Part shown: piece by piece, positions 18,170 through 24,454 of the stretch
Layout of the letters: the number at the start of each line of letters is the position of its first letter
How positions within the stretch are numbered: the stretch's first letter is position 1
Assembly (NCBI RefSeq): GCF_947855115.1
Contig: NZ_CANTZW010000017.1
Span: forward strand, 13,355-77,354
Length of the DNA stretch: 64,000 nucleotides
DNA from: an uncultured Parabacteroides sp.
GTDB lineage: Bacteria > Bacteroidota > Bacteroidia > Bacteroidales > Tannerellaceae
Reading direction: 5' to 3'
Notes under the pieces: model-generated
Seen by the model: only the letters and a program-made list of their open reading frames with translations
The model's database searches: none
What the model was told of the DNA's origin: nothing
Position numbers and translations under genes: made by a program

Positions 18170-19636
18170 TTACTTTCCAGCTTGAACCTGTATACGTTCT
18201 TTCGAGGTTATCTTCTTTTCAAATACTTTTGTGTCCAGTTGAATCGGGGTATTGACGAAATCCGGGACATTGTAGGAATAAACGGAGCGATCGTAATAGG
18301 TTTCGGGGTCTTGCTGGGGTAGGAGGAATGGCTTGCTTATCCTACCGTTCTCGTCCATACTTGCCAGATAAAGGCGGGTATAAAGGCCATCTCCCCGGCG
18401 GCTACTGAAGACAAACCAGCGGGAGTTACTGCTCCAGTTATGGAAGCTCTCGGTATCATCGCTATTCACTTCGGACAGTTCGCGAAGATCCCCGCTTGCC
18501 AAGTTTAGTAACCATAGATCTGCCTCTTTATGCCAGATCGAAAAGTTGCCGTAGTCGGATAGAGTGAACATAATATATTTACCGTCATAGGAGGGACGGG
18601 GGAAAGATACACTTTTCCCTGAAGCCTCAGCGTTCACCAATGTATCGATACGGCTTCCGAATGTTCCGGTAGCGGGATCGAAATCAATACGGCATAAATT
18701 ATATCTTATCTCTTTGTATTCTTCCGGTATCTTTTTAGCTTCGGCAGAACAGAAGTAAAGGGTACGGCCATCCGGGGAGAAAGCCGGGAAGGTCTCGAAC
18801 CGGTCTTTTCTTTGCAAGGAGTCGCAGAGGAGCAAACGATGGTCGGCAGGATGATATACTACCACATCAGACTCCAAGTCCAGAACTTCTACCCGCTCGT
18901 CCTTGACCGTGTGAAAAGCCTGCCGGGTGTTGTTTGTGGAATACGCTATATATTCGCCTCCGGGATGCCAATAAGGGTAGACACAGGTAGCGATCGTTTG
19001 ATCGGTTTTCGTATTGAGATATTCATCCTTGTCGCCGGTTCTCATAAAAGTGGCCCCGTGTGTACCTCGCACGTGAAGGCTGAAATGGCTCGGATCTGTC
19101 CGGTTAAAGGCGTGGCAGTTTACACACATGCCTTTTACCAACGTGTTTTCCACCAAAGGCTTTTCCTCATAAGACGATAGGTCGCGCTCATAAATTCCCA
19201 TACGGCTGTAGACTTCGTAGCCGGGAGCGATCTTCCGGTATACCAAGCCATAATCGATCGGATAAGTGCTGACGTACATGGGGAAAGGCCTGTAAGTGCG
19301 CCATTTGCCATTTTGCTTGACACTGACGGTAAAGAGTAAACTATCGCCCTGATTGGAAGCGAGCAGTTGCCTCCAATCCTTTTCCGGGAAATGGACTTGT
19401 TTTGCGTTTATATGTAATTCTTTTCCTTGACCTCCTTTTACGATAACATCTATCCGCTCATAGGATGTACCCGTATAAGAGAAATTCATCGGCGCTATCG
19501 CGGCGGGAACCGTCACTTCTGTATAATCCGGATAGATGGAAGGATATTCCCCTATCTGTTCGGGGGATACCACCGGTTCTTCACAAGCGGAAAGCAACGC
19601 TATACATATACTATATAATAAGATAAGTTTTCTCAT
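18170..19636 (-). CDS. TolB-like (PD40 repeat) beta-propeller lipoprotein with CxxCH, copy 2
   Basis: LSAC lipobox; YPYWHPGG, FPAFSPDG, FPRPSYDG, NWSSNSRWFVFSS blade motifs; CVNCH. Confidence 0.82.
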   Translation of the reverse strand: MRKLILLYSICIALLSACEEPVVSPEQIGEYPSIYPDYTEVTVPAAIAPMNFSYTGTSYERIDVIVKGGQGKELHINAKQVHFPEKDWRQLLASNQGDSLLFTVSVKQNGKWRTYRPFPMYVSTYPIDYGLVYRKIAPGYEVYSRMGIYERDLSSYEEKPLVENTLVKGMCVNCHAFNRTDPSHFSLHVRGTHGATFMRTGDKDEYLNTKTDQTIATCVYPYWHPGGEYIAYSTNNTRQAFHTVKDERVEVLDLESDVVVYHPADHRLLLCDSLQRKDRFETFPAFSPDGRTLYFCSAEAKKIPEEYKEIRYNLCRIDFDPATGTFGSRIDTLVNAEASGKSVSFPRPSYDGKYIMFTLSDYGNFSIWHKEADLWLLNLASGDLRELSEVNSDDTESFHNWSSNSRWFVFSSRRGDGLYTRLYLASMDENGRISKPFLLPQQDPETYYDRSVYSYNVPDFVNTPIQLDTKVFEKKITSKERIQVQAGK

Positions 19637-19642
19637 GGTTGT

Positions 19643-22892: not shown

Positions 22893-24454
22893 AGCTTATC
22901 CTCCTTTCCGGGGCCAATAGCCGCAAAATGATAATAAAACCAATAGCTCTTACCGTATTTCTCTTTTAAACTTACGTCCTTAGCTTCATAAAGCCGGGTA
23001 TAATCGGCAAATTCTTTCGCTGTCTCTACTGGAATCTGGTATTTTATAAGTTCTTCCGCACGGATATTACCTTGTCGGGCGAGATTGATCAACATCGCCT
23101 CGGTGAAAATGGGGCTGGGTACTTTACCCGGCACGTAGTCTTCCTCGAAAGAACGGAGGTCTTTGGAGAGTAAATGATAGCAAAGCAAGTATTCGTAGGC
23201 GTTGAGGTTTCCGGCGTTCGAGGCAACTAAATTCCGTAAAGAAGCTACGGCATCCTCCCCGGCACGCAGTTGGTCTCGAGTTGGGATATATTTACGTTTC
23301 TTCTCCAGCCAATCCTTTACTTGCGGGGTTTGCTTACCGGGCATCCTCTTCTCTGCCCAGCTTTTGTAAAGGAGTGTTTGGTTTAATATACGCAGATATT
23401 TAAGAGCCGCTTCATCATCCCCGTTGACCAGATTGATTTCTGCTAACCGTTTTATCATACGGCTACCCGAATTCCGGGGGGAGAAGATCATGCTTAACAT
23501 GGCGCAATGCTCGGCCATGGTCATATCTCCTAACGTGAACCATAACTCGTTGGCAAACATGATAGAGAGAAAAGAGGCGGACGGATTCACGGGTAGGATC
23601 AATCCTCTCGTTGCCGGTTGGTTCCACGCTAAAAGATCTCTGGAGAGGGAGACGGGTGAGTTGAGCCCGGATGGATATGTGGCATTGTATAAGTTCCGGT
23701 AATAAGTAGCCCAAGGGATTTGTCGGTCCGTTCCCAAAAGATTTCTCATCTTTTGAATGTTACCGAAATAATGTTCCACGTCAAGTCCCAGTACATATTC
23801 CCGGTCGAGATCCGGCTTGCTCCACCAAGTGGTGGCGGGATATTGAGTGGCGGGAAGGAATAATATACCTGCCGCAAGCAAGACACATAGTTTTTGATGA
23901 TGCGCTATGAATCCGGCGATCAGCATAAGGGCCAGGCAAAGCCATGCCCCGTACCCGAAGCACCAATAGCAAAGGAGCATGGCGGGAATACAAGTAAGCA
24001 GACGTTGCCTTTCCATCTGACTCCGGCTGTATAAAAGAAAAATACCTTCAGCCCCGGTTAAGGAGAGAGTGGCAGACAACGGATAGGCGAGCCCGCAAGA
24101 CCTTCCTGTTTCCCATACCGCGATCACCACCATAAGAGAAAGGGCGTATCTCTTGCTGACGAATTGCCGGAGAGTCTGGTAGGTAAGTAGGGCAAATAGG
24201 GTTAAGACAACACTTAGGATCAACGGGCCTCCCCCGATATAATAAAAGAACTGCGTAAGGAAATCGCCGGCGAGACAAGCCAGCCATGCTTCCCCATGAA
24301 GATATTCGCGAAGAAACTCGCCGTTATATAAGAACAACATCATTTGTTCTTTATGGAACAAATGATAAGGGTACATCCGGAAGAAGAAAACGAAAATCGC
24401 TATCGCCAGTACCGCCAGTGTGATCGATAGATCCTGTTTAACGACTCGCTTCAT
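22889..24454 (-). CDS. DUF6057-like polytopic membrane protein with helical/TPR-like C-terminus, copy 1
   Basis: YHLFHKEQMMLFLY, DFLTQFF, TM segments, RLAEINLVNG..AALKYL, YEYLLCYHLLSKDL, SYWFYY. Confidence 0.72.
   Translation of the reverse strand: MKRVVKQDLSITLAVLAIAIFVFFFRMYPYHLFHKEQMMLFLYNGEFLREYLHGEAWLACLAGDFLTQFFYYIGGGPLILSVVLTLFALLTYQTLRQFVSKRYALSLMVVIAVWETGRSCGLAYPLSATLSLTGAEGIFLLYSRSQMERQRLLTCIPAMLLCYWCFGYGAWLCLALMLIAGFIAHHQKLCVLLAAGILFLPATQYPATTWWSKPDLDREYVLGLDVEHYFGNIQKMRNLLGTDRQIPWATYYRNLYNATYPSGLNSPVSLSRDLLAWNQPATRGLILPVNPSASFLSIMFANELWFTLGDMTMAEHCAMLSMIFSPRNSGSRMIKRLAEINLVNGDDEAALKYLRILNQTLLYKSWAEKRMPGKQTPQVKDWLEKKRKYIPTRDQLRAGEDAVASLRNLVASNAGNLNAYEYLLCYHLLSKDLRSFEEDYVPGKVPSPIFTEAMLINLARQGNIRAEELIKYQIPVETAKEFADYTRLYEAKDVSLKEKYGKSYWFYYHFAAIGPGKEDKL

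Follow-up and report, generated by a model that had tools for sequence, protein, structure and literature searches.

We analysed a stretch of 64,000 nucleotides from the genome of an uncultured Parabacteroides sp. (contig NZ_CANTZW010000017.1, positions 13,355 to 77,354; hereafter the window) around a cassette of four genes at window positions 18170-24454. The cassette has the order A1-B1-A2-B2, where A denotes a membrane protein of the Pfam family DUF6057 (PF19529) and B a propeller lipoprotein with a C-x-N-C-H motif. All four open reading frames (ORFs) are intact and lie on the minus strand (Table 1). Together with a preceding gene for a DUF4369 lipoprotein they form one tight unit of five genes. 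The DUF4369 gene overlaps the start of A1 by 17 nt, the A1 stop and the B1 start overlap as ATGA, the TAA of B1 is followed after 1 nt by the ATG of A2, and the TAA of A2 is followed after 6 nt, in frame, by the ATG of B2. This gene order, with overlapping or abutting stop and start codons, is as described in a first-pass annotation made from the sequence. For A2 the ATG start was preferred over a GTG at 21487 because homologues are 582-596 aa long. Upstream of the cassette, a hairpin with a T-run lies 3' of argD. On the other side, a stem-loop stands between B2 and a GH26 gene, and the latter is preceded by a TAcaTTTG box (Bacteroides-type -7), in keeping with the hairpin and separate promoter previously placed between the cassette and the neighbouring mannan operon.

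Both A proteins are full-length members of DUF6057, with scores of 385 bits (A1) and 667 bits (A2) against a gathering score of 29.8 bits, and share about 27-31% identity; their earlier description as DUF6057-like can thus be made definite. B1 and B2 are 37% identical over 469 aa (E 5e-115), and the PD40 blades and CxxCH that had been read from them are found in both, the latter as CMNCH and CVNCH, together with a lipobox. DUF6057 is a family without assigned function. B homologues carry the precomputed Pfam domains PF26549 and PF26550, families that, it appears, were introduced in newer Pfam releases to cover the N-terminal region of B. A literature search found no paper mentioning DUF6057, PF19529, PF26549 or PF26550, and nothing relevant on WD40-like beta propellers in polysaccharide utilisation loci (PULs) or on c-type cytochrome propeller lipoproteins; papers on BF0771 do not cover the A-B pair. 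With no established function found in Pfam or the literature, the pair is aptly called uncharacterised.

A and B constitute a single unit

The genome from which the window derives contains seven DUF6057 genes and seven B genes, and each A has a B immediately downstream on its own strand. Five of these pairs lie beyond the window, on contigs C46, C4, C26 and C3; the neighbours of these five were named by sequence reading and phmmer matching rather than by family scans, and by these means no glycoside hydrolase gene was recognised near them. In an evenly drawn sample of 201 Bacteroidales genomes, 22 possess B; all 22 also possess DUF6057, with almost all B genes directly beside an A. This arrangement is departed from in one divergent pair, in two genomes where B precedes A, in G328 and G430, where one B and one A lie on separate contigs, and at a B on contig C31 of G435, beside which no A is listed. 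DUF6057 proper is uncommon across the phylum, where 6 of 301 sampled genomes pass the family cut-off (the window's own and five others), and B is directly downstream in all four of the non-Bacteroidales genomes with full-length DUF6057 that were checked. At one non-Bacteroidales locus (G073:C3:1088672-1091950) the DUF6057 gene is a pseudogene with several stop codons and the adjoining B is intact. Overall, adjacency of A and B in nearly every case was found in 26 of 26 genomes checked. The pairing suspected at first pass is therefore near-universal, and homologues of the two proteins do not often occur independently.

The two families have also diversified in parallel. The distance matrices of A and B, computed for 131 pairs, gave a Mantel r of 0.94, which was reached by 0 of 999 permutations, and the clusters of A map one to one on those of B (46 pairs belong to the A1-type cluster). 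As judged by these comparisons, A and B evidently duplicate only as units.

A query consisting of A2 and B2 read through the in-frame TAA (1081 residues) was searched against 1.84 billion representatives and returned 5693 matches at E 1e-3 or better (representative clusters at 50% identity). Among the best 150 of these 5693 are four natural A-B fusions: P0347, P0254, P0270 and P0273. P0347 (1138 aa) gives one collinear match to the query over 17-1075. All four retain CxNCH and pass from the end of A into the 'PDY..V.IP..IAPLNF' of B with no hydrophobic stretch at the joint; in the unfused pair, a signal peptide is found at the point where the fusions join. Since B is exported and the joints contain no membrane segment, the C-terminal domain of A must be periplasmic. 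P0273 (857 aa) and P0254 (994 aa) are missing the last third of this domain, and P0270 (787 aa), which consists of an A1-type C-domain and B without membrane helices, may be a truncated gene call.

The acidic signal for surface export is missing from most B proteins, and in some a membrane helix replaces the lipobox. B consequently faces the periplasm. Thus, adjacency, one-to-one clusters and natural fusions uphold the proposal of an inner-membrane protein with a lipoprotein partner. They establish that A and B function as one unit at the periplasmic side of the inner membrane, very probably a physical one in which the two proteins are in contact.

Topology and conserved residues of A

The AlphaFold2 model of A2 (pLDDT 94, pTM 0.92) is all-helical, comprising a membrane domain (residues 1-290) and a helical-repeat domain resembling tetratricopeptide repeats (TPR-like, 292-590). 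Averaged over 95 family members, the charges of the loops show a clean alternation: positive values fall on the N terminus and on loops 99-105, 146-152, 186-199 and 258-268, negative values on the first loop, 124-130 and the stretch beyond residue 289. This pattern implies an N terminus on the inside, nine crossings and a periplasmic C-domain. The A1 type lacks the last two helices of A2 and the YYRFP motif, and keeps the E-Q..F loop motif; as exactly two helices are absent, its parity equals that of A2. By the positive-inside rule, A2-type proteins are thereby predicted to cross the membrane nine times and A1-type proteins about seven times, both from a cytoplasmic N terminus.

In all paralogue types, E40, Q41 and F45 (E-Q-x-x-x-F) of the first periplasmic loop are invariant. 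Further invariant residues are PGG, Q72 and G171 and, in the C-domain, N331, Q349, E371, R401, R405, Y422 and W435; the motifs D125/E126 and YYRFP occur in the A2 type only. Conserved polar positions in A thus lie in periplasmic loops and the TPR-like domain, not mid-membrane. A sequence search of the PDB with A gave no match, a permissive Pfam scan of ten membrane domains of A returned DUF6057 only, and comparison of the A2 repeat domain with PDB folds using Foldseek yielded generic TPR proteins only (E 7e-3 or worse, TM-score <=0.2).

The succession of TM1, a long first periplasmic loop that contains short helices and the invariant E40, and a C-terminal periplasmic TPR-like domain would suit a GT-C-like enzyme. 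A would then transfer glycosyl or other groups from a lipid-linked donor, recognising the acceptor through its repeats (cf. TMTC/TMEM260/PMT), with B as acceptor or adaptor. Pmt1-Pmt2 is the sole membrane protein among the top 50 Foldseek matches of A2 (rank 38, probability 0.63), although this match, obtained with the whole A2 model, is weak. Weak per-genome HMM matches pointed to FtsW and to a PMT_2-like protein that reads like an ArnT/PMT-type GT-C enzyme. These failed profile-profile controls: in hhalign, A against FtsW/RodA and against the PMT_2-like protein reached a probability of <=0.3%, no better than MFS and CitMHS controls. Kinship of the membrane domain with GT-C/SEDS proteins was rejected, all the sequence tests that were run having failed. 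Given also the outcome of the Pfam scan and the restriction of the second acidic motif, D125/E126, and of YYRFP to one of the two types, we regard a transferase of this kind as improbable.

B is a propeller protein with an invariant CxNCH motif

In the AlphaFold2 model of B2 (pLDDT 92, pTM 0.90), a beta-sandwich spans residues 26-123 and a propeller about 171-461. The folds that Foldseek places closest to it are propellers, those of acylaminoacyl peptidase, prolyl oligopeptidase and tricorn (E from 3e-9). The propeller of B begins with the motif C-[MVLIF]-N-C-H, which is present in 131 of 131 full-length B relatives and in all seven paralogues of the window's genome. Its two cysteines and that of the lipobox are the only universal cysteines in B; H188, R190, H224, H399, W401 and R414 are universal as well. 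C-type cytochromes are expected to be exported proteins with a CxxCH, and B1 and B2 both possess the motif along with lipoprotein signals. On this evidence B probably carries one c-type haem.

A cytochrome c maturation system is encoded in the same genome, as a fused CcsBA on contig C6 and an nrfH-nrfA-ccsB-ccsA cluster on C17. Among high-quality genomes, a CcsA-family gene (PF01578) occurs in 52 of 53 that are B-positive and in 133 of 160 that are B-negative (one-sided Fisher p 0.002, phylogeny not accounted for). This co-occurrence is consistent with haem attachment to B and is not strong evidence for it. As in B, an exported beta-propeller and CxxCH are united in known propeller haemoproteins (hydrazine synthase alpha/gamma-like proteins, cytochrome cd1 NirS and quinohaemoprotein dehydrogenases). 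No sequence relation of these to B was detected, however, and the CxxCH of B, where haem is a prediction, is single and forms part of the propeller, not of a distinct cytochrome domain. A relationship of B to either of two proteins of its own genome, a hydrazine-synthase-like protein of 1333 aa and a propeller/di-haem protein of 591 aa, was considered and rejected, the similarity being weak and limited to the propeller repeats.

An obligate, sometimes fused, one-to-one partner of a CxxCH protein could alternatively be a dedicated maturation factor. A would then act as a CcmI/NrfG-like apocytochrome chaperone, or handle haem, for its own B only, the CxNCH being beyond the general machinery alone. 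CcmI combines membrane helices with a periplasmic TPR domain. A resembles CcmI and NrfG in its membrane anchor, its periplasmic TPR-type domain and its genetic tie to a CxxCH protein, and CcsA is present in every high-quality B-positive genome but one. Nevertheless, A differs from these proteins in having seven to nine helices, a loop motif of its own and a strict, sometimes covalent, pairing. It has neither a conserved His nor a WWD-type motif, and no homology was detected, whether by sequence or by fold, to CcmI, CcmF or CcsBA. Moreover, it would be unusual for a chaperone to remain fused to its client, and the role of B itself would be left unexplained. We assign this explanation a low probability.

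Family searches with B led in another direction. Besides PD40 repeats, they gave weak NCBIfam matches to TolB and PorE (E 1e-6 to 4e-8, far below the cut-offs), and TolB was the only match by sequence in the PDB (E about 0.04-0.2). TolB (TIGR02800; PDB 2hqs, 1crz) is likewise periplasmic with an N-terminal domain and a PD40 propeller, while PorE has both TPR and propeller modules. In the manner of Tol-Pal or PorE, a TPR protein together with a PD40 propeller might therefore tether the inner membrane to wall or outer-membrane complexes, stabilising SusC/SusD machines. Yet B1 and B2 score 27.8 and 32.8 bits against the TolB cut-off of 343, an order of magnitude too low. In contrast to TolB, B is a lipoprotein with a beta-sandwich N-domain, an invariant CxNCH and a DUF6057 partner instead of TolQRA/Pal. 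The pair has no OmpA-like or Pal-binding part, and reading and scanning of the neighbours revealed no TolQRA/Pal homologue, no dedicated Tol/Pal family search having been made. Additionally, the invariant CxNCH, His and Arg of B suggest chemistry over scaffolding, and a tether would not explain the tie to a cytoplasmic chorismatase-like enzyme described below. We consider such a role very improbable.

The cassette is ancient and in Bacteroidia belongs to SusC/SusD loci

Eighty loci around A2 orthologues were collected, in which the gene calls are ATG-only ORFs. They derive from Parabacteroides (closest, 87% identity), Bacteroides, Phocaeicola, Mediterranea, Muribaculaceae, Rikenellaceae, Prevotella, Paludibacter, Dysgonomonas and Prolixibacteraceae. 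B2 follows A2 wherever the contig allows, and most of the loci have the full order A1(short)-B1-A2-B2, with a third pair added in Prolixibacteraceae. An orthologue of the DUF4369 lipoprotein is found on the same strand in 46-50 of the 80, directly upstream of A1 and usually overlapping it. The first-pass annotation had described a duplicated module of two genes; conservation of the cassette and the DUF4369 gene across Bacteroidales and beyond establishes that the duplication is ancient, not local, and that both pairs belong to one ancient operon. Because the five genes are conserved as a unit across several families, the two pairs probably work together. The conserved cassette and the matching clusters of A and B do agree with the suggestion that the copies are retained, specialised paralogues. 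In one contig of an uncultured Parabacteroides (L020, 6968-10228), only A2-B2 is present, directly after argD; A1, B1 and the DUF4369 gene are absent, and the first pair can evidently be lost.

Other same-strand neighbours in the 80 loci are SusD-like proteins (47 loci), a lipoprotein of ~279 aa without family (45), a RidA/FkbO-like protein of 370-400 aa (33), SusC (at least 23), GH130 (20), GH26 (19), a symporter (17) and an epimerase (15). GH26 and GH130 lie directly 3' of B2 in 20 of the 80. From these counts, the ancestral Bacteroidia layout reads SusC, SusD, lipoprotein, DUF4369, A1, B1, A2, B2, and the mannan operon is an addition to it in Bacteroides and Parabacteroides.

In the window, the arg operon is directly upstream of the cassette in place of SusC/SusD. 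The SusC and SusD genes, contiguous with the cassette in relatives, are here 13 kb away, beyond about 13 kb of housekeeping genes (25224-38177) that include argD/C/G, a GNAT acetyltransferase, a MutS-family gene and a CitMHS transporter. Three related Parabacteroides contigs (L018-L020) share this arg-gene neighbourhood. The GH36, AraC, SusC, SusD and lipoprotein genes on the far side appear to be the ancestral upstream half of the locus, and the cassette would accordingly stand in the middle of a galacto/glucomannan utilisation locus that is split in the window. The lipoprotein (38286-39161) has no Pfam or NCBIfam family match. A beta-mannan utilisation locus of Bacteroides ovatus comprises GH26, GH36, SusC/D, GH130, epimerase and symporter (PMC5094572). 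The same enzyme set flanks the cassette in the window, where it differs in being split by the housekeeping genes. The Bacteroides ovatus locus is not known to have DUF6057 or propeller genes.

Table 1. Features of the window and of A-B, chorismatase-like and cytochrome c maturation loci elsewhere in the same genome
Feature	Position	Strand	Remarks
Second AraC regulator	10329-11174	-	Downstream of B2
SASA-type esterase	11523-12944	-	Downstream of B2
Epimerase-like	12975-14171	-	Named as for GH26
Sugar symporter	14168-15556	-	Named as for GH26
GH130	15575-16747	-	Named as for GH26
GH26	16849-17967	-	Named by sequence reading and phmmer among loci, not by family scan
Stem-loop	18104..18147	-	3' of B2, between cassette and GH26 gene; 14-bp stem, no U-tract, -22.8 kcal/mol, z -4.5
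B2, lipoprotein, 488 aa	18170..19636	-	Beta-sandwich and beta-propeller; CVNCH at 19112-19126
A2, long-type DUF6057, 590 aa from ATG	19643..21415	-	Pfam E 3e-200
B1, lipoprotein, 491 aa	21417..22892	-	Beta-sandwich and PD40 beta-propeller; CMNCH at 22347-22361
A1, short-type DUF6057 membrane protein, 521 aa	22889..24454	-	Pfam E 9e-115
DUF4369 lipoprotein, 200 aa	24438..25040	-	First gene of unit; Pfam PF14289, E 1e-13
Lipoprotein, ~280 aa	38286..39161	-	CDPTIEEE acidic stretch after lipid Cys, probably surface-exposed; orthologue of gene after SusD in relatives
SusD-like lipoprotein	39200..40972	-	63% identical to SusD preceding cassette in relatives; genome's best SusD orthologue
SusC/RagA-type TonB-dependent transporter	40976..44221	-	TIGR04056, E 3e-279; Pfam
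AraC-family regulator	44586..45464	-	Upstream of SusC
GH36 alpha-galactosidase	45492..47723	-	Upstream of SusC
A-B-A-B array	C46:238-12246	+	Directly after SusC-SusD
SusC-SusD-A-B	C4:33463-41580	-
TonB-dependent-receptor-like gene, then A-B	C26:48052-53874	+	B with membrane helix, no lipobox
A-B	C3:121661-124885	-	No transporter nearby
Operon of two possible outer-membrane proteins (sequence reading only), imelysin, di-haem DHOR, CIACH lipoprotein and, last, chorismatase-like gene	C4:130956-138148	-	Iron-uptake type by family names
591-aa propeller and di-haem MauG-like protein, chorismatase-like gene, 252-aa lipoprotein, 1333-aa protein	C6:41577-51980	-	Fused CcsBA adjoining
nrfH-nrfA-ccsB-ccsA	C17:80600-84682	+	Tetra-/penta-haem nitrite reductase and split System II pair; about 3 kb past window end

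A-B pairs follow TonB-dependent transporters at 3 of 5 loci of the window's own genome and at no fewer than 43 of the 80 related loci, establishing that in Bacteroidia the A-B operon belongs to SusC/SusD loci. The association with PULs raised at first pass thus takes, within Bacteroidia, the form of a tie to SusC/SusD-type loci; outside Bacteroidia, the pair occurs without SusC/SusD. A-B pairs also occur without mannan genes, which indicates a tie to the uptake machinery and not to mannan chemistry. The link to mannan, called unproven at first pass, does nonetheless recur, through the GH26-GH130 genes that follow B2 in relatives and, in the window, through the SusC/SusD/lipoprotein, GH36 and AraC genes 13 kb upstream.

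This setting raises the possibility that haem is not involved at all: B would bind or process oligosaccharides or other cargo imported by SusC/SusD, A would serve as permease or anchor, CxNCH would be a metal or thiol-redox site, and the paralogues would differ in their cargoes. The placement of the pairs after transporters argues for it, particularly the SusC-SusD-A-B arrangement on C46 and C4, with no glycoside hydrolase or MFS gene recognised nearby. Furthermore, binding or cleavage of glycans is common among propellers (the Foldseek matches of B2 include GH74, oligogalacturonate lyase and BNR proteins), and CxNCH lies within a beta-strand of the B2 model. Against this, the pair outside Bacteroidia has no SusC/SusD and does have the chorismatase-like gene, the mannan locus already has a symporter of its own, and the conserved polar residues of A are not mid-membrane as they would be in a permease. 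In addition, it is exactly C-x-x-C-H that is invariant in B, and B-positive genomes nearly always keep CcsA. We therefore judge a handler of cargo free of haem to be rather unlikely.

A chorismatase-like enzyme accompanies the pair

The RidA/FkbO-like neighbour noted above is a chorismatase-like protein of 370-400 aa with no signal peptide and, by Pfam, a RidA fold. Its profile matches the chorismatases Hyg5 (5ag3 and 5a3k, E 2e-36) and FkbO (4bps, E 7e-28) over about 215 residues that include the RidA-type C-terminal lobe. Against the FkbO/Hyg5 NCBIfam model TIGR04444 it scores 40-140 bits, under the 325-bit cut-off, and it represents an unstudied sister group, encoded outside the window. In the 201 Bacteroidales genomes, the gene is present in 20 of 22 B-positive and 8 of 179 B-negative genomes (odds ratio 214, p 4e-19, without correction for phylogeny), and often adjacent to the pair. 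In three non-Bacteroidales genomes with the pair, which have no SusC/SusD there, it is the immediate neighbour of A-B in all three. By these counts the chorismatase-like enzyme appears to be the strongest family-wide partner of the A-B pair.

In the window's own genome, chorismatase-like paralogues are found in operons with other CxxCH proteins, two of which bear propellers (Table 1). The copy on C4 is 60% identical to those beside A-B pairs in other genomes. On C6, the accompanying 1333-aa protein contains NPCBM, a hydrazine-synthase-alpha middle and FGE-sulfatase domains, with two CxxCH; in several other genomes, a chorismatase-like copy is located 5-12 kb from CcsBA. The family thus accompanies exported CxxCH proteins, several with propellers, in three separate contexts, and this lends indirect support to B as a haemoprotein.

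A proposed function for the A-B pair

We propose that A and B form a periplasm-facing inner-membrane complex in which B is probably a c-type haemoprotein, and that the window holds two ancient, co-retained versions of it together with the DUF4369 lipoprotein. We put the probability of this reading at roughly 40%. A1B1 and A2B2 would be two versions of one complex, expressed from one operon with the lipoprotein. B would be a mono-haem c-type cytochrome matured by CcsBA (System II), and A would dock B through the TPR-like domain, linking it to the membrane. Bacteroidia would have recruited this module into SusC/SusD loci, here the split galacto/glucomannan locus, and in view of that recruitment the module probably acts on or for SusC/SusD cargo.

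The weakest and frankly speculative steps concern the chemistry. The cytoplasmic Hyg5/FkbO-like homologue might make a hydroxybenzoate-type molecule, A might export this aromatic acid or present it at the outer face of the inner membrane, and the haem of B might then use it for redox chemistry. Stated more broadly, the DUF6057 protein, the CxNCH propeller and the chorismatase-like enzyme could make up an unrecognised three-part system, in which a chorismate-derived molecule is handed across the membrane to a propeller haemoprotein as cofactor, mediator or co-substrate. We hold this broader proposal to be unlikely as it stands.

Several observations weigh against a haem-bearing complex. The haem on B, though probable, is a prediction from a sequence motif, and in the B2 model CxNCH falls in a beta-strand (171-178), not in the helical turn usual at c-type sites. 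Foldseek with this model returned propellers and no cytochrome fold. A lacks both a conserved His and any recognisable quinol, haem or transporter signature, and sequence, profile and fold comparisons detected no characterised relative of it. AlphaFold also draws A2 residues 152-188, at the middle of which is an invariant Gly, as one 37-residue helix; this leaves eight crossings and clashes with the charge pattern and the fusions. CcsA-family genes are present in 86% of the order anyway, which makes their co-occurrence with B weak, and the genome samples are not phylogenetically independent, neither co-occurrence statistic being corrected for phylogeny. Lastly, the chorismatase-like genes of the window's own genome adjoin no A-B pair, and seven A-B pairs against two such genes fit a simple 1:1:1 pathway poorly.

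Significance

New here are the eight-gene layout, the split mannan locus, the assignment of sides from fusion junctions and the near-exclusive co-occurrence with a chorismatase-like gene, which offers a concrete, testable handle on the function of A and B. The pair is common, with 5693 representative clusters, about 13% of sampled Bacteroidales species and seven copies in this genome, and it is found within the nutrient-uptake loci by which the feeding of gut Bacteroidales is defined. Should B prove to be a haemoprotein, these anaerobes would have many more periplasmic c-type cytochromes than the nitrite reductase with which they are usually credited, and cytochromes beside glycan importers would point to an undescribed periplasmic redox step in nutrient use. 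The three-part system, if true, would constitute a new class of periplasmic redox enzyme, multiplied in gut Bacteroidales to up to seven copies per genome and wired into SusC/SusD loci.

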